From the NCBI GenBank assembly GCA_964016885.1, contig OZ024740.1, positions 399,962,001 through 400,026,000 on the forward strand: a DNA stretch of 64,000 nucleotides. Direction: 5' to 3'. The stretch is from Eledone cirrhosa. Its lineage: Eukaryota. Within the stretch, counting starts at the first letter, position 1; every line of letters starts with the position of its first letter. Under the pieces are notes generated by a model. The model was given only the letters and a program-made list of their open reading frames with translations. It had not been told where the DNA came from and did not search any database. The position numbers and the translations under genes were made by a program. Below are positions 12,008 to 59,207 of the stretch, piece after piece.

Positions 12008-12035
<28 letters not shown>

Positions 12036-12039
<4 letters not shown>

Positions 12040-13736
12040 ATACTTTGGGAGGGTCATGTTGCCAATAAGAAACACACGCACCAGTTGCTTTCACTTCAAT
12101 TTATTATAATAAATTTATAAATTTAGGAATTTATAAATTTCCGGTTGGTTGGTTGGTTCCACAACCAGATGGTTGTTTATATATTGTCAAAGTTCTTTCG
12201 TCACACATTCTGTGACCTCTTCAGTGACTGGGGGTTCATTTCTTTGTTTTTTTGTTTTTTGTGCCTCTCCTTTGTTCTGTCCTACGCCATCTTGTTTTTT
12301 GTGTGTGTGGTGTGTGCTTAGTTTGCGCATGTGTTGCATCCGGGTGTCTGTGTGTGTTTATATTCGTTTATTTATTTGTTTATTTACATGTTACTGGTTG
12401 GTTGTTTGTTCTATGTGCGTGTGTCTTTTCATTTTGTCCTTAATTGTAAGTTGTGATATTGCTGTTCCACTCATGTTTTCTATTTAATTTTGGTTGTAAT
12501 TCATTTATGTTTATTGCCTCTGTGATTTGTCTAAACATTGCGTCTTTTCTGTGTGTAGATTCTATTTTTATTTCTATGTTCTCTAATTTACCCTTATGTT
12601 CTATTTTAGCATGTTGGTAGAGTACAGATGATTCTTTACTATCTTGAAGGTCTCGCCAGTGTTTATTTATCCGTTCCCCTATACTACGAGCTGTCTCACC
12701 TATGTACACTATATTTTTATCTCTACAATGTCCTTCAGTACATCTTATGCTATATACTACATTTCTAGTTTTACAGTTAATATGGAGGCTTAATTTACAG
12801 ATTATACATTTCTTATCTATACAAGGAGGTCTTTGAAAAGGGTATGTCTTGCTAATAAGTGTTTTTATTTTATTTTTTTATTTTTATGGAGGTACCTGGT
12901 CTTTCTACTATCTTAATATTGAGTTTATGTTCATCTAGGGCCCTTCTAAATTTGTAAGCCAATATCTAGGGGTTGTATTGATGAACATTACACTCTGGTA
13001 TTTATTGCTATCATACCATGAGTTTATTCTATTAGCCTTATTCCTAGTTCTTTCTAGTCTATTCCAAACTTTGCTCCTATACAAGGGACAGGTCCCATTT
13101 GTGTCATTATTTACCATTTTTTCCTATTTGGTTCTGGCTCCTCTATACACTCTGATTTTATCTCTCTGATTGTAACCAGAGAACTGCATACGGTGGATGA
13201 AGTGTTGTATGTGTCTCTCTAGTTCTTCGGGGTTGCACATGCGGGACACGTTTCTCATCACCCGTACCAAATCCGCAATCAGTATGTTGATTTTGGTATG
13301 GTCCGAAACAGCTGAGCTTCGGTGGATCAGATATTTGGAAGTCATGGGTTTGGCATAATGGGAATGGAGAATTTGTTTTTTGTTATTAATGGTATCTAAC
13401 CAGAGCTCTGTGTCTAGTACAGGTAATCGATGGTTGGGGTGTTTGCTTGGGTAGTCTATAGTAGCTCTAATACTCTGGTGGATGGAGTTAGCTATTTGCT
13501 GGATGCTTTCCATTGTGTTTTTCTCCAATTCCTGACTGTTCTCTATGGGGGTGTTTTAACTACGATGTTTATATCATCAACGTAGCGGGAGTACATTATC
13601 AGGGTTAAGGGGTCTTCTAATTGTTCTTTAAGTTTAATTTTAAGTCTACTGTCCCACCATACCATGAATAAGTTAGCTATGTCGCTTGCAATGCTAACCC
13701 CAATGGCTGCTCCCTTGCCAAACAAATTCAGAAACG

Positions 13737-13740
<4 letters not shown>
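12036..13740 (-). mobile_element. Penelope-like element copy 1 (5'-truncated; RT, C-rich linker, GIY-YIG, HHR-like 3' region), degraded, inserted in (TA)n
   Basis: [28 protein letters not shown] and YIGETARSIGERINKH...ITEAI in ORF pieces 13543..14055, 13124..13528, 12935..13117 and 12440..12709; closely similar to 29119-31927. Confidence 0.93.
12186..12228 (-). ncRNA. HHR-like motif in the 3' region of PLE copy 1
   Basis: Minus strand: gtca CTGAAGA g-gtcaca-gaatg-tgtgac GAAA gaac TT tgac; stem III is minimal. Confidence 0.6.
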
Positions 13741-13826
<86 letters not shown>

Positions 13827-13828
13827 TG

Positions 13829-13885
<57 letters not shown>

Positions 13886-14400: not shown

Positions 14401-14449
14401 ATATATGGAGAGTAAAATGAAGTACAGAAACCATGAGAAAATGAAGTGA

Positions 14450-14520
14450 TTTTGTATTTGCAAGTTTCTTGATATAAACTCGTGTTGAAACATATTAAAC
14501 TTTGGAAGGGTCATGCTGCT

Positions 14521-14562
<42 letters not shown>

Positions 14563-28479: not shown

Positions 28480-29119
<640 letters not shown>

Positions 29120-29341
29120 TTCGTTTCTGAATTTGTTTAGCAAGATTTTTTATCTGAAATCGTGTGTTGAAACCGATATTGTTATACTTTGGGAGGGTCA
29201 TGTTGCCAATAAGAAACACACGCACCAGTTGCTTTCACTTAAATTTATTATATATTTATAAATTTATAAATTTACAAATCTACAAACTTATAAATTTCTG
29301 GTTGGTTGGTTGGTTCCACAACCAGATAGTTGTTTATATAT

Positions 29342-29386
29342 AGTCATAGTCCTTTCGTCACACACTCTGTGACCTCTTCAGTGACT
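29342..29386 (-). ncRNA. HHR-like motif in PLE copy 2, left arm
   Basis: agtca CTGAAGA g-gtcaca-gagtg-tgtgac GAAA ggac TA tgact. Confidence 0.65.
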
Positions 29387-29594
29387 GGGGATTCCTTTCT
29401 TTGTTTCTGTGCCTTTCCTTTCTTCTATCCTACGCCATTTTGTTTCTGTGTGTGTGTTGTGTGCTCAGTTTGCGCATGCGCCACATCCGGGTGTCTGTGT
29501 GTGTTTGTGTTCATTTATCTATTTGTTTATTTATTTATTTATTTATTGTTGGTTGGTTGTTTGTTCTATGTGTGTGTGTGTTTTCATTTTGTCC

Positions 29595-29980
29595 TTAATT
29601 GTAAGTTGTGATGTTGCTGTTCCACTCATATTTTCTATTTAATTTTGGTTTTAATTCTTTTATGCTTACTGCCTCTGTAATTTGCCTAAACATTGCGTCT
29701 TTTCTGTGTGTGGATTCTATTTTTATTTCTATGTTCTCTAATCTACCCCTGTGTTCTATCTTAGCATGTTGGTAGAGCACAGATGATTCTTTATTATCTT
29801 GGAGGTCTCGCCAGTGTTCATTTATTCGTTCCCCTATACTACGAGCTGTCTCACCTATGTACACTATATTTTTGTTTCTACATTGTCCTTCAGTACATCT
29901 TATGCTATACACTACATTTCTAGTTTTACAGTTAATATGGGGGCTTATTTTACAGGTTATACATTTCTTATCTATACATG
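29595..29980 (-). pseudogene. PLE Cys-rich linker plus GIY-YIG endonuclease
   Basis: CIDKKCITC..NCKTRNVVYSIRC..C..YIGETARSIGERINEH..H..H..ITEA..LN. Confidence 0.92.
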
Positions 29981-31023
29981 AGGGTTTTGGAACGGGTATG
30001 TCTTGCTAATAAGTGTTTTTACGGAGGTACCTGGTCTTTCTACTATCTTAATATTGAGATTATGTTTATTTATGGCCCTTCTAAATTTGTAGGCTAGTTC
30101 GCCTCTAGGGGTTGTATTGATGAACATTACACTCTGGTATTTATTGCTATCATACCATGAGTTTATTCTATTGGCCTTGTTCCTAGTTCTTTCTATTCTA
30201 TTCCAAAATTTGCTCCTATACAAGGGGCATGTCCCATTTATGTCATTATTTACCATTTTTTCCCATTTGGTTCTGGCTCCTTTATACACTCTGATTCTAT
30301 CTCTCTGATTGTAGCCAGAGAACTGCATACGGTGGATGAAGTGTTGTATGTGTCTCTCTAGTTCTTCGGGGTTGCACATGCGGGACACATTTCTCATCAC
30401 CCGTACCAAATCCGCAATCAGTATGTTGATTTTGGTATGGTCCGAAATGGCCGAGTTTCGGTGGATCAGATGTTTGGAAGTCATGGATTTGGTATAATGG
30501 GAATGGAGGATTTGTTTTTGGTTGTTAATGGTATCTAACCAGAGCTCTGTGTCTAGTACAGGTAATCGATGGTTGGGGTGTCTACTTGGGTAGTCTATAG
30601 TAACTCTAATGCTCTGGTGGATGGAGTTTGCTATTTGCTGGATGCTTTCCATTGTGTTTTTCTCTAGTTCCTGACTGTTCTTTAGTGGGCGTGTCTTAAC
30701 TACGATGTTTATATCATCTACGTAGCGGGAGTACATTATCAGGGTTAAGCTGTCTTCTAATTGTTCTTTAAGTTTTTGTTTAAGTCTACTGTCCCACCAT
30801 ACCATGAATAAGTTAGCTATGTCGCCTGCAATGCTAACACCAATGGCTGCTCCTTCCTCTTGGGCATATGTTTTGCCATTAAATTTGAACATATGTTCCT
30901 TAAGGGTTAATTTTATGCTGGCCCCTACCGCATGTGCAATCATTTTCTTCAGTTCATCGTGGTTTTCGGGTGTCCGTATGGCTCTGGTCCACCTGTTCCA
31001 TCTATCTGTATGGGTTTTCTTGG
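29972..31023 (-). pseudogene. PLE reverse transcriptase (N-truncated), frameshifted before the C-rich linker
   Basis: [41 protein letters not shown]. Confidence 0.92.
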
Positions 31024-31079
31024 CCAAGAAAACCCATAAAAACACTTATTAGCAAGACATACCCGTTCCAAAACCCTCA

Positions 31080-31463
31080 TGTATAGATAAGAAATGTATA
31101 ACCTGTAAAATAAGCCCCCATATTAACTGTAAAACTAGAAATGTAGTGTATAGCATAAGATGTACTGAAGGACAATGTAGAAACAAAAATATAGTGTACA
31201 TAGGTGAGACAGCTCGTAGTATAGGGGAACGAATAAATGAACACTGGCGAGACCTCCAAGATAATAAAGAATCATCTGTGCTCTACCAACATGCTAAGAT
31301 AGAACACAGGGGTAGATTAGAGAACATAGAAATAAAAATAGAATCCACACACAGAAAAGACGCAATGTTTAGGCAAATTACAGAGGCAGTAAGCATAAAA
31401 GAATTAAAACCAAAATTAAATAGAAAATATGAGTGGAACAGCAACATCACAACTTACAATTAA
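31080..31463 (+). pseudogene. Inverted duplicate of the linker and GIY-YIG endonuclease
   Basis: The ORF track gives the same 105-aa protein as 29595..29912. Confidence 0.92.
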
Positions 31464-31720
31464 GGACAAAATGAAAACACACACACACATAGAACAAACA
31501 ACTTACAATTAAGGACAAAATGAAAACACACACACACATAGAACAAACAACCAACCAACAATAAATAAATAAATAAATAAACTAATAGATAAATGAACAC
31601 AAACACACACAGACACCCGGATGTGGCGCATGCGCAAACTGAGCACACAACACACACACAGAAACAAAATGGCGTAGGATAGAAGAAAGGAAAGGCACAG
31701 AAACAAAGAAAGGAATCCCC

Positions 31721-31765
31721 AGTCACTGAAGAGGTCACAGAGTGTGTGACGAAAGGACTATGACT
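31721..31765 (+). ncRNA. HHR-like motif in PLE copy 2, right arm
   Basis: Same motif on the plus strand; stem I agtca/tgact. Confidence 0.65.
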
Positions 31766-31921
31766 ATATATAAACAACTATCTGGTTGTGGAACCAACCA
31801 ACCAACCAGAAATTTATAAGTTTGTAGATTTGTAAATGTATAAATTTATAAATATATAATAAATTGAAGTGAAAGCAACTGGTGCGTGTTTCTTATTGGC
31901 AACATGACCCTCCCAAAGTAT

Positions 31922-31957
<36 letters not shown>

Positions 31958-32107
31958 CATGTATATTACATTGTTTACTCTATTTTGACGAATCAACTAA
32001 CAACAAATATTGAAGCTGAAATGAAAACATAATGTTGCTTGTATTCTTACCAATGTCTGTTTCAACAACCTGGCGAAACAAATATATATATATATATATA
32101 TTTTTTA

Positions 32108-53696: not shown

Positions 53697-53924
53697 TACA
53701 CACACACATACACACACTCATACACACACACATACACATACACACATACACACAGACATACACAGGCACTCACACACACTCATACACACACATACACACA
53801 CACACACACATATAGTCACACACACACATACACACACTCACAAACTCACACAGACACATGAACACACACACACGAACACACACTCATCCACACGCACATA
53901 CACCAATATTCCTCTCCAACCATC

Positions 53925-56900
53925 CCACAGTCTCCCCCAGTCTCCCCCAGTCTCCCACAGTCTCCCCCAGTCTCCCCCAGTCTCCCACAGTCTCCCACAG
54001 TCTCCCCCAATCTCCCCCAGTCTCCCACAGTCTCCCACAGTCTCTCCCAGTCTCCCCCACTATCCCACAGTCTCCCCCAGTCTCCCCCAGTCACCCACAG
54101 TCTCCCCAAGTCTCCCATAGTCTCCCACAGTCTCCCACAGTCACTCACTATCCCCAGTCTCCCCCAGTCTCCCCCAGTCTCCCCCAGTCTCCCCCAGTCT
54201 CCCACAGTCTCCCACAGTCTCCCCCAGTCTCCCACAGTCTCTCACAGTCTCCCCCAGTCTCCCACAGTCTCCCCAAGTCTCCCCCAGTCTCCCACAGTCT
54301 CACACAGTCTCCCACAGTCTCCCCCAGTCTCCCACAGTCTCCCACAGTCTCCCCCAGTCTCCCGCAGTCTCCCGCAGTCTTCCACAGTCTCTCACAGTCT
54401 CCCCCAGTCTCCCCCAGTCTCCCACAGTCTCCCCCAGTCTCCCACAGTCTCCCCTAGTCTCCCACAGTCTCCCCCAGTCTCCCCCAGTCTCCCCCAGTCT
54501 CCCCCAGTCTCCCATAGTCTCGCCTAGTCTCCCCCAATCTCCCCCAGTCTCCCCCAGTCTCCCGCAGTCTCCCCCAGTCTTCCACAGTCTCCCACAGTCT
54601 CCCACAGTCACTCACTATCCCCAGTTACCCACAGTCTCCCCCAGTCTCCCCAACTATCCCACAGTCTCCCCCAGTCTCTCCCAGTCTCCCCCAGTCTCCC
54701 CCAGTCTCCCACAGTCTCCCCCAGTCTCCACCAGTCTCCCCCAGTCTCCCAGAGTCACTCACTATCCCCAGTCACCCACAGGCTCCCACTATCCCACAGT
54801 CTCCCCCAGTCACCCACAGTCTCCCCCAGTCTCCCCCAGTCTCCCCCAGTCTCCCTCAGTCTCCCACAGCCACTCACTACCCCAGTCACCCACAGGCTCC
54901 CACTATCCCACAGACTCCCCCCGTCTCCCCCAGTCACCCCCAGTCTCCTCCAGTCTCCCACAGTCTCTCACAGTCTCCCCCAGTCTCCCCCAGTCTCCCA
55001 CAGTCTCCCACAGTCTTCCCCAGTCTCCCACAGTCTCTCACAGTCTCCATCAGTCTCCCACAGTCTCCCACAGTCTCCCCTAGTCTCCCACAGTCTCTCA
55101 CAGTCTCCCCTAGTCTCCCACAGTCTCTCACAGTCTCCCACAGTCACTCACTATCCCCAGTCACACACAGGCTCCCACTATCCCACAGTCTCCACCAGTC
55201 TCCCACAGTCTCCCACAGTCCCCCACAGTCTCCCACTATTCCACAGTCTCCCCCAGTCTCCCCCAGTCTCCCACAATCCCACAGTGCCCCACAGTCTCCC
55301 ACTATCCCACAGTCCCCTACAGTCTCCCACTATCCCACAGTCCCCCACAGTACCCCACTATCCCACAGTCCACCACAGTGCCCCACAGTCCCCCACAGTC
55401 TCCCACTATCCCACAGTCCCCTACAGTCTCCCACTACCCCACAGTCCCCCAAACTCTCCCACTATCCCACAGTCTCCCACAGTCTCCCACTATCCCACAG
55501 TCTCCCCCGTCTCCCACTATGCCACAGTCTCCCACAGTGCCCCACAGTCCCCCACAGTCTCCCACTATCCCACAGTCCCACACAATCCCCCACAGTCTCC
55601 CATAATCCCACAGTCACCCACAGTCTCCCACTATCCCACATTCCCCCACAGTCCCCCACAGTCCACCACAGCTCCACAGTCCCCCACTGTCTCCCACTAT
55701 TCCACAGTCCCCCACATTATCCCACTATCCCACAGTCTCCCACTATCCCACAGTCCCCCACGGTGCCCCACACTCCCCCACAGTCTCTCACTATCCCACA
55801 GTCCCCTACAGTCTCCCACTATCCCACAGTCCCCCACAGTCTCCCACTATCCCACAGTCCCCTACAGTCTCCCACTATCCCACAGTCCCCCACAGTCTCC
55901 CACTATACCACAGTCCCCTACAGTCTCCCACTATCCCACAGTCCCCCACAGTCTCCCACTATCCCACAGTCCCCTACAGTCTCCCACTATCCCACAGTCC
56001 CCCACAGTCTCCCACTATCCCACAGTACCCCACTATCCTACAGTCCCCCACAGTGCCCCACAGTCCCCCACAGTCTCCCACTATCCCACAGTCCCCCACA
56101 GTCTCCCACTATCCCACAGTCCCCCACAGTCTCCCACTATCCCACAGTCCCCCACAGTCTCCCACTATCCCACAGTCCCCCACAGTCTTCCACTATCCCA
56201 CAGTCTCCCACAGTCCCCCACAGTGCCCCCACAATCCCACACAGTCTGCCACTATCCCACAGTCCCCCACAGTCTCCCACTATCCCACAGTCCCCCACAG
56301 TCTCCCACTATCCCACAGTCTCCCACAGTCTCCCACTATCCCACAGTCACCCACAGTCTCCCACTATCCCACAGTCTTCCACTATCCCACAGTACCCCAC
56401 TATCCCACAGTCTCCCACAGTCCCCCACACTGCCCCACAGTCCTCCACAGTCTCCCCCGTCCCCCACAGTCCCACAGTCTTCCACAGTACCCCACAGTGC
56501 CCCACAGTCTCCCACTATCCCACAGTCCCCCACAGTATCCCACTATCCCACAGTCCCCCACAGTCTCCCACTATCCCACAGTCCCCCACAGTCTTCCACT
56601 ATCCCACAGTACCCCACTATCCCACAGTCTCCCACAGTCCCCTACAGTGCCCCCCAGTCCTCCACAGTCTCCCCCGTCCCCCACAGTCCCACAGTCTTCC
56701 ACAGTACCCCACAGTGCCCCACAGTCTCCCACTATCCCACAGTCCCCCACAGTCTCCCACTATCCCACAGTCCCCCACAGTCCCCCACTATCCCACAGTC
56801 CCCCACAGTCTCCCACTATCCCACATTCCCCCACAGTCTCCCCCAGTCTCCCACAGTCCCCCACAATCCCCCACTATCCCACAGTTCCCCACAATCTCCC

Positions 56901-57195
56901 ACTATCCCACAGTCCCCACAGTCTCCCACTATCCCACAGTCCCCCACAAACTACCACTATCCCACAGTCCCCCACAGTCTCCCCCAGTCTCCCACAGTCT
57001 CCCACAGTCCCCCACTATCCCACAGTCCCCCACTGTCTCCCAATATCCCACAGTCCCCCACAGTCTCCCCCTGTCTCCCACTATCCCACAGTGCCCCACA
57101 TTCTCCCACTATCCCACAGTCCCCTACAGTCTCCCCCTCTCTCCCACTATCCCACAGTGCCCCACAGTCTCCCACTATCCCACAGTCTCCCACAC
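53925..57195. repeat. 3.3-kb C-rich minisatellite: 10-bp unit (cagtctccc[c/a]) grading into a 29-bp unit (cagtctcccactatcccacagtcccccac)
   Basis: Direct periodicity; source of the spurious S/P/Q/H-rich ORFs. Confidence 0.95.
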
Positions 57196-57283
57196 ATCTC
57201 TACCTTTCATCAATGTTTCAATCAACTTCAGCAAAACCTTAGTCAAGAATTATGTGGATCCAAAGTATCTTGTATTCTAGTGG

Positions 57284-57344
57284 CTGCTGCTGCTGATGTT
57301 GTTGTTGTTGTTGTTATAGTTGTTGTTGTTGTTGTTGTTGTTGC

Positions 57345-57393
<49 letters not shown>

Positions 57394-57793
57394 GGTGCTG
57401 TTGTTGTTCTTGTTGCTGTTTTTGCAGTTGTTGTTGTTGTTGTTGTTGCTGTTGTTGTATTTGCTGTTGCTGTTTTTGTTGTTGTGGTTGGTGTTGTTGT
57501 ATTTATTGTTGTTGTTGCTGTTTTTGTTGTTGTTGTTGGTGTTGTTGTTATCAATATGAAGCTCCTAAAGGCAATTATGAATACATAGTCAGCCAAAGGA
57601 ATTTGCTTCTCATGGATAGAGTAGTTGCTATTGACTTGTTATTGTTGTTGTTATTGCTGCTGTTGTTGTTGTTGTTGTTGTTGTTATTGCTGCTGCTGCT
57701 GTTGTTGTTGTTATTGCTGCTGCTGTTGTTATTGTTGTTGTTTTTGTTGTTGTTTTTGTTTTTGTTGTTGTTGTTGTTCTTCTTCTTCTTCTT
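57284..57793. repeat. (GTT/GCT)n trinucleotide tracts ending in (TTC)n
   Basis: Directly visible. Confidence 0.95.
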
Positions 57794-57794
57794 C

Positions 57795-59207
57795 CGCCAC
57801 CAACACCAACACCACCAGCACCAGCACCACCACCACTACCACCAGCAGCACCACCACCAGCAACAGCACCACCACCACCACTACTACCACCACCAGCACC
57901 ACCACCACCACCAATACTACCACCACCACCACCACCACCACCACTACTACCACCACCAGCAGCAGCAGCACCACCACCACCACCACCACCAATACTACCA
58001 CCACCATCACCACCACCACCACTACTACCACCACCAGCAGCAGCACCACCACCACCACCACCACCACCACCACCACCACCACCACCACCACTACTACCAC
58101 TACCAGCAGCACCACCAGCAGCACCAACACCACCACTACTACCACCACCACCACCACCACCAACCACCACCACCACCAACACCACCACCACCACAAGCAC
58201 CAGCACCAGCACCAGCACCATCACCACCTCAACCATCACCACTAGCACCACCACCACCACCACCACCACTATCACCATCTCCACCACCACCACCACCACC
58301 ACCACTACTACCACCAGCAGCAGCAGCACCACCACCACCACCACCACCACCACTACTACCACTACCAGCAGCACCACCAGCAGCACCAACACCACCACTA
58401 CTACCACCACCACCACCACCACCACCATCACCACCACCACCACCAACACCACCACCACCACAAGCACCACCACTACTACCACTACCAGCAGCACCAACAC
58501 CACCACTACTACCACCACCAACCACCAACCACCACCACCACCACCACCACTACTACCACTACCAGCAGCACCACCAGCAGCACCAACACCACCACTACTA
58601 CCACCACCACCACCACCACCAACCACCACCACCACCATCACCACCACCACCACCAACACCACCACCACCACAAGCACCAGCACCATCACCACCTCAACCA
58701 TCACCACTAGCACCACCACCACCACCACCACCAGCACTATCACCATCTCCACCACCACCACCACCACCACCACTACTACCACCACCACCACCACCACCAG
58801 CAGCAGCAGCACCACCACCACCACCACCACCACCACCACCAGCACCACCACCACTACTACCACCACCACCACCACCACTAGCAGCAGCAGCACCACCACC
58901 ACCACCACCACTACTACCACTACCAGCAGCACCACCAGCAGCACCAACACCACCACTACTACCACCACCACCACCACCACCACAAGCACCAGCACCATCA
59001 CCACCTCAACCATCACCACCAGCACTATCACCACCACCACCACCACCACCACCACCAACACCACCACCACCACAAGCACCAGCACCAGCACCATCACCAC
59101 CTCAACCATCACCACTAGCACTACTTCCACCATCACCACCATCACTATCACCACCACCACCACCACCACCACCACCACCACCACCACCACCACCACCACC
59201 ACTACTA
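57795..59207. repeat. 1.4-kb imperfect (CCA)n tract with higher-order repeats
   Basis: caagcaccagcacc..atcaccacctcaaccatcacc recurs near 58194, 58671, 58983 and 59073. Confidence 0.95.

Follow-up and report, generated by a model that had tools for sequence, protein, structure and literature searches.

Two fixed junction sites and one-of-each pairing of inverted arms in a (TA)n-inserted family of Eledone cirrhosa assigned to the Penelope-like elements

The window, which is the whole stretch of 64,000 nucleotides of Eledone cirrhosa DNA that was analysed, contains two copies of one repeat family. The features of these copies and of their surroundings are listed in Table 1. Both flanks of the insertions of this family are (TA)n. 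Copy 1 does not contain the terminal 57 nt (29119-29175) that are carried by the left arm of copy 2, in agreement with a preliminary description of this DNA, in which about 58 nt of the family terminus were said to be missing. An inverted piece of the missing terminus is located at the 5' junction of copy 1, as was also claimed: the sequence at 13714-13739 is the reverse complement of that at 29119-29144, with 44 of 45 positions identical when the common TA run is included (E 1e-15). The string quoted for this piece in the preliminary description is 27 nt long, because it consists of 26 nt of the terminus and a T common to the TA run. The ATAT that precedes TGTTATAC is the point at which (TA)n is joined by copy 1 as well as by the right arm of copy 2 (31929 downward), and the shared internal junction proposed for them is therefore confirmed. 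Among the contigs of four sequencing runs listed for the junction of copy 1, none extends across it, which speaks neither for nor against this structure. The right arm of copy 2 alone contains a 49-nt tandem duplication at 31449-31551, despite the identity of the two arms at all 597 columns compared. The diverged terminus that had been noticed near 14450 is present as well, at 14447-14538, and short matches of 83-93% to it are found in L104, L126, L148 and L278. These matches suggest that a second family with the same end region may exist.

Table 1. Features of the two copies and of neighbouring sequence in the window
Feature	Position	Strand	Remark
Copy 1, whole insertion	12032-13739		(TA)n on either side
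(TA)n target, left flank of copy 1	12008..12035	.	last ATAT common to the inner start site of the element
Copy 1, tail-less arm, 5'-truncated PLE from the inner site (unit position 58)	12032..13713	-	90.1% vs 29176-30853
Copy 1, inverted tailed arm, 26 nt only (unit positions 26 to 1)	13714..13739	+	one mismatch
(TA)n target, right flank of copy 1	13740..13864	.
Hammerhead-like core (CTGAAGA, 6-bp stem, GAAA) in copy 1 pseudo-LTR	12195..12232 (bounds approximate)	-	motif at 12224
Predicted GIY-YIG endonuclease frame of copy 1, with CX4CX2C linker and CCHH residues	12440..12877	-	PF01541, E 5e-5; translation
Putative RT remnant of copy 1 (YVDD motif, thumb), frameshift-broken	13124..13713	-	PF00078, E 0.028
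Diverged terminus of a related or older family, no (TA)n junction	14447..14538	-	74.7% over 99 nt
Complete 57-nt tail in copy 2	29119..29175	-
Copy 2, tailed arm, about 1,905 nt	29119..31025 (inner end approximate)	-
Copy 2, tail-less inverted arm, overlaps the tailed arm	31034..31929	+	0 substitutions in 597 compared columns

Judged from its predicted domains, the family belongs to the Penelope-like elements (PLEs) that combine a reverse transcriptase (RT) with a GIY-YIG domain at the C-terminus. When fragments of the window are compared with Pfam, PF00078 is detected in copy 2 with E 7e-5, which is below the curated cut-off, and PF01541 in copy 1 with E 5e-5. The whole 1,223-aa protein matches no Pfam family. 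The linker CIDKKCITC is followed by C..C within the core and by two H, and thus has the form of a CX2-5CxxC linker with CCHH. A linker of this form before the GIY-YIG core, together with CCHH, is described for the Neptune and Nematis clades of PLEs in the accessible part of PMC8557442, a likeness that is based on motifs rather than on a tree. The unit, which is defined from tandem copies, is 4,084 nt long, and four of the eight tandem junctions translated contain unbroken frames of 1,223-1,276 aa. The ORF starts 44 nt past the outer junction site, and the inner site is located about 100 nt upstream of the ORF start. Partial tandems with pseudo-LTRs are present, in which the tail end is joined to the element's own 5' end (452 tandem junctions genome-wide). 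The core motifs and two stems of a putative hammerhead are seen, and an Rfam search of copy 2 (28900-32100) gives nothing at E<=1. The unbroken ORFs of L336, L341, L342 and L310 (1,223-1,276 aa) contain a long Asn/Thr/His-rich stretch ahead of the RT, which resembles the N-rich inserts described in the accessible part of PMC3846280. In L309 (C1:132946000-132949500), the outer start site and its downstream bases are present eleven or twelve times in head-to-tail order, at intervals of 46 nt. L129 was considered as a full-length tandem, but was rejected because it consists of two separate insertions.

PLE insertions are described as carrying an inverted 5'-truncated copy and an optional tail of 30-40 bp on one end (accessible parts of PMC8557442 and PMC3846280). 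An inverted arm with a defined outer end is present in 75 of 100 insertions sampled from the tail-less end in the present family, and an optional extension of 57 nt is present on one end. This extension is the published PLE tail. The preliminary description was correct as to this piece, but did not recognise it as such. The family resembles complex endonuclease-positive PLE insertions (PMC8557442; Pen2a_Av in PMC3846280, as far as accessible) in the combination of RT with C-terminal GIY-YIG and in its partial tandems, and also in the head-to-head inverted arm, the tail on one end and the microsatellite target. It differs from them in the length of the tail, which is 57 nt instead of 30-40 nt and has AATATCG at both ends. 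What is measured in the present family, in addition to what these sources describe, is a one-of-each rule and a common template, as shown below.

The junctions were counted over the 3.0-Gb genome as exact matches of 25-32 nt patterns, for which backward controls gave 0. The tail-less (TA)n junction is found 12,045 times, the tailed (TA)n junction 12,018 times (control pattern 0), and read-through into the 57-nt extension 11,022 times. The numbers of tailed junctions and of tandem junctions indicate that the inverted piece of copy 1 is linked to the family, as had been proposed, and is neither a chance match nor an independent repeat. To locate the outer ends of individual arms, the search was seeded with a 26-mer (11,899 matches) that lies some 240 nt into the element, and the first 100 arms on contig 1 were taken. 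They end at the inner site in 56 cases, at the tail end in 40, in a tandem in one and elsewhere in three, so that 96 of 100 arms finish at two sites that are 57 nt apart. The junctions thus peak at ATAT sites and are not randomly distributed, as the preliminary description anticipated. The word AATATCG occurs only twice in the unit, once at each junction site. ATAT, on the other hand, occurs 25 times, and a longer TATATATA at unit position 211-215 is the junction in none of the 100 arms and, when the genome is searched with a pattern that matches a single allele, at two places. An overlap of 4-5 nt with the target therefore exists, but it cannot be what selects the sites, and annealing to AU-rich RNA is not sufficient, contrary to what had been supposed. 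Both sites are internal to a tandem read-through. The terminus that had been called the 3' end of the family is therefore not a natural unit end.

Arm ends also cluster at unit positions 305-330 (17 of 140, as compared with 7 and 6 in wider adjoining bins). The region 305-335 (window positions 29441 on the minus strand, 31666 on the plus strand and 12293 on the minus strand) adjoins the words AAAATGGCG and TGCGCATGCGC, which we take to be promoter motifs of YY1 and NRF1 type. This region is possibly an RNA start, although several arms run beyond it.

The two ends of an insertion are not chosen freely. Two samples, which overlap in many insertions and lie within the first 44 Mb of contig 1, were analysed; a few of the loci (L162, L164/L167, L176) are possibly local duplicates. 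In the first 100 tail-less junctions (101 seeds less one duplicate), the opposite end is a tailed inverted arm in 73 insertions, a tail-less arm in 2, a direct (TA)n join in 6, and other or unresolvable in 19. The ratio of 73 tailed to 2 tail-less partners gives a binomial p of 1.5e-19 against a free 50:50 choice. When the first 100 tailed ends are examined, the opposite end is tail-less in 67, tailed in 4 seeds (2 insertions) and another inverted end in 7, and 22 have no partner. Each site is also found alone between TA runs, in 6 of 100 cases for the tail-less and 13 of 100 for the tailed end. Tandem-containing insertions follow the same rule, because all 14 of those with both ends resolved (13 from 22 loci and one further locus) have one end of each type. 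L150 (5552-8479) is the one long example of the rare tail-less/tail-less pair. Its arms differ at 14 family polymorphisms, and it was probably made from two RNAs.

The tail-less and tailed arms overlap, by up to 1.9 kb, in 58 of the 73 pairs, and the tailed partner is shorter than 58 nt, like that of copy 1, in 15 of the 73. Arm lengths were compared in 70 pairs, which are the 73 less two tandems and one short-tail case. Tailed arms stop within positions 1-57 in 14 of 70 cases and within the next 57 nt (58-114) in 14 of 56. These results are not consistent with complementary, non-overlapping segments as in L1, which the preliminary description had expected, and copy 1 lies at the short extreme of a continuous range. 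Its locus is unremarkable within its own family. The further-reaching arm is the tail-less one in 41 pairs and the tailed one in 25, with 4 equal, and arm lengths are symmetric (36 vs 34). Arm ends are at most 20 nt apart in 14 pairs, as compared with 4.9 expected (p 1e-4), but this number falls to 7, as compared with 4.1 expected (p 0.10), once an internal palindrome is excluded. Among 14 tandem insertions there are 7 whose inverted arm outreaches the upstream piece that it would have copied in a fold-back. Most central junctions show inserted or mismatched bases relative to the reference; microhomology of at least 3 nt is found in 8 of 18 clean junctions outside the palindrome, as compared with 5% expected, but this set is too selected for use.

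A minimal element of about 50 nt is present in L106, L108, L148, L161, L162 and L165, and is found at 322 places in the genome. At its junction, TTGCCAA from the tail-less arm abuts TTGCTAA from the tail. Pairing of these stretches with each other in the RNA, around the inner start site, would be possible.

The arms of one insertion are more similar to each other than to those of other insertions. The comparison was made for the 40 of 86 pairs that have enough comparable columns, with repeat-rich columns excluded. The two arms differ at 166 of 9,588 columns (1.7%), as compared with 4.6% between insertions, and 36 of 40 pairs are below the median difference (p 5e-7); an earlier pass gave the same picture. 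Family polymorphisms in paired arms are common to both arms in 189 cases and not in 79, whereas private changes are common to both in 24 (including 17 sense A>G; a single locus supplies 14) and not in 92. The other four of the 40 pairs are at or above the median difference; L115, L164, L167 and L025 are among the pairs that differ at common alleles. In pairs with spacers of 0.9-1.7 kb, the arms are no less similar than in symmetric pairs.

Clustered sense-strand A>G changes are a mark of ADAR. Two genome searches for copies edited in this way gave 10 and 3 matches, and the first 10 represent 4 pairs and 2 singles. Five insertions have matching sense-strand A>G sites on both arms (20 of 22, 29 of 29, 7 of 7, 5 of 5 and 6 of 6). 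Two edited matches have no partner arm across the tract. For the two heaviest tracts, no third copy is found among the 40 best candidates scored, the next best being 86% and 84%. Edited sites of different insertions overlap with a Jaccard index of 0.03-0.46. None of the 33 sampled pairs that span the region combines an edited with an unedited arm, although only one of the 33 is edited. Rare changes show no genome-wide strand bias (244 A>G on 512 A sites and 124 T>C on 274 T sites), and editing is restricted to few copies. Avoidance of a 5'-G is not seen at the edited sites (17 of 69 vs 69 of 276), so that the ADAR label is drawn from strand and clustering only. That a hairpin transcript was edited and re-inserted whole is rejected for the five edited insertions, because A>G changes on the sense strand coincide in position between the two arms, and T>C changes number 0-2. 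The edited upstream pseudo-LTR of the insertion at C1:2.08 Mb is what its tailed arm matches, whereas the outer pseudo-LTR of the long arm is unedited. This result indicates that the start sites used can be a whole unit apart. The A>G tracts are located at unit positions of about 150-335 (L127 6766-7503; L190/L241; L312-L321) and end at about 335. The 150 nt around the two start sites are free of such tracts, as if protected.

The common alleles and the common A>G tracts favour one RNA molecule behind both arms, as in twin priming of L1 type. Twin priming on one RNA, as proposed in the preliminary description, is therefore retained in that both ends look primed, at different sites and on one template, but not in the non-overlapping segments of L1 type. 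The explanation that we favour, with moderate confidence, is that both cut (TA)n ends prime reverse transcription on one RNA molecule. What the data show directly are the two fixed sites, the use of one of each, the overlap and the common source of the arms. The steps of the explanation itself, from the cutting of the two strands and the priming at either end to the use of a single RNA molecule and the joining in the centre, are inferred from them. The GIY-YIG domain would open both strands of (TA)n, and each 3' end would pair through 4-5 nt with one AAUAU site, with the choice of the site made by the protein and not by homology alone. The two cDNAs would copy the same stretch of RNA, with one displacing or trailing the other, or else with each on its own pseudo-LTR copy within a tandem transcript. 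They would stop independently and would then be joined in the middle. In copy 1, the outer cDNA would have ended after 26 nt. Three points weaken the case for priming on one RNA: the inner site shows no barrier, near-diagonal arm ends are in excess, and a few pairs are discordant. Tailed arms do not pile up before the inner site, and thus nothing shows the cDNA blocking that is expected of two polymerases on one RNA. The excess of near-equal arm ends counts against this explanation, because a fold-back predicts it. The common edits would also be expected from a fold-back, from conversion, or from an edited source locus that is missing in the assembly. It may be, with about as much to be said for it as against it, that PLEs use a dedicated two-ended reaction, in which one complex sets both microsatellite ends on two matched RNA sites and copies the RNA twice; fixed RNA edits would then serve as barcodes, and the tail would be the distance between the start sites.

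An asymmetric protein dimer might bind two RNAs from a single source locus, with priming at the inner site of one RNA and at the outer site of the other. Such dual priming is rather unlikely, although it fits the free overlap of the arms and the absence of a barrier at position 58. It has been proposed for L1 (accessible part of PMC2837659), a dimer is predicted for the anole element (accessible part of PMC11167929), and the differing arms of L150 indicate that two templates are sometimes used. However, two RNAs would be edited independently, yet the five edited insertions match at almost every site, and different insertions have few edited sites in common. Dual priming requires that all five tracts exist in source DNA, but neither of the two tracts tested has a third copy among the 40 best candidates, and the 10 edited matches are 4 pairs and 2 singles. 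Self-priming by fold-back, in which a cDNA started at the tail end snaps back and copies itself to the inner ATAT, with a later asymmetric deletion at the centre of the palindrome by which either arm is shortened, corresponds to the model presented in the accessible part of PMC3846280. It accounts for common alleles and edits together and for the near-diagonal excess of arm ends, and at C1:2.08 Mb the edited upstream pseudo-LTR, which the long arm had copied immediately before, recurs in the tailed arm. Nevertheless it is unlikely, because 41 of 70 pairs have a tail-less arm that extends beyond the tailed one and lengths are symmetric, and because the inverted arm extends beyond the upstream piece supposedly copied in half of the 14 tandem insertions. 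Copy 1 would require a deletion of about 1,650 nt from one arm only, tail-less arms also occur alone and in pairs, and synthesis would have to pass longer TA matches before halting at position 58.

Close inverted repeats can convert. The arms might accordingly have been copied from unrelated templates and homogenised later by gene conversion or by assembly polishing, with the tail cut by an endonuclease that resolves a DNA intermediate. This is very improbable, because private changes are mostly not common to both arms (92, vs 7 common other than A>G) and pairs with long spacers are as alike as symmetric ones; resolution mediated by the endonuclease is nevertheless the origin to which the accessible part of PMC8557442 attributes the tail. 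Strict twin priming of L1 type, with non-overlapping complementary segments, is hardly tenable and is already refuted as the family rule, because most pairs overlap, the sites are fixed and internal, poly(A) is absent and arms shorter than 58 nt are not in excess, so that it describes only the short class, to which the geometry of copy 1 and of 15 of the 73 pairs and the one minimal form found 322 times belong.

In vitro, the protein of the anole Poseidon element PAc cleaves both strands, extends them and initiates at two sites that bound the tail (accessible part of PMC11167929), which speaks for the explanation favoured above. The present family resembles PAc in that two start sites bound the tail, both strands would be cut and extended, the target is AT-rich and the sites are internal to a tandem RNA. 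The sites of PAc are located 111-118 nt inside the ORF and are without homology to the target or the cut DNA, whereas those of the present family are located in the 5' untranslated part and have ATAT in common with the target. The missing homology in PAc counts against the favoured explanation. The accessible part of PMC11167929 contains no report of site pairing on one product. In twin or dual priming of L1 (accessible part of PMC2837659), both nicked strands likewise prime and inverted fragments of one element result, but the first primer is on poly(A), the second is at a variable internal site, and an internal deletion is formed. The present family has two fixed internal sites, no poly(A), and overlap in 58 of 73 pairs, and the two-ended route with one end of each type is its main route (73 of 100) and not a variant as in L1. 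The accessible part of a bioRxiv paper on retrozymes (10.64898/2026.07.22.740005) contains nothing on arm pairing, and a literature search over titles and the starts of abstracts, with few subscription journals, gave no paper on this mechanism, on site pairing or on edit barcodes in PLEs. The two-armed shape is already published, and no paper was found in this search that gives a mechanism with two sites on one RNA. The origin of the inverted arms and one-sided tail of PLEs is named as unsolved in the accessible part of PMC8557442, and is still open after the first in vitro study, as far as PMC11167929 is accessible. Priming at two sites on one RNA would account for this known shape of the elements. 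The family supplies about 12,000 natural reaction products, with a sharp rule of one tailed and one tail-less end, a common start-site word, intact ORFs and edit barcodes. Because of the number of products, the rule and the barcodes, the models with one RNA, two RNAs and a fold-back make different, testable predictions. Elsewhere in the window, at 53913-59202, long decamer and trinucleotide arrays (TCCCACAGTC, TGT, TTG, CCA) follow one another.
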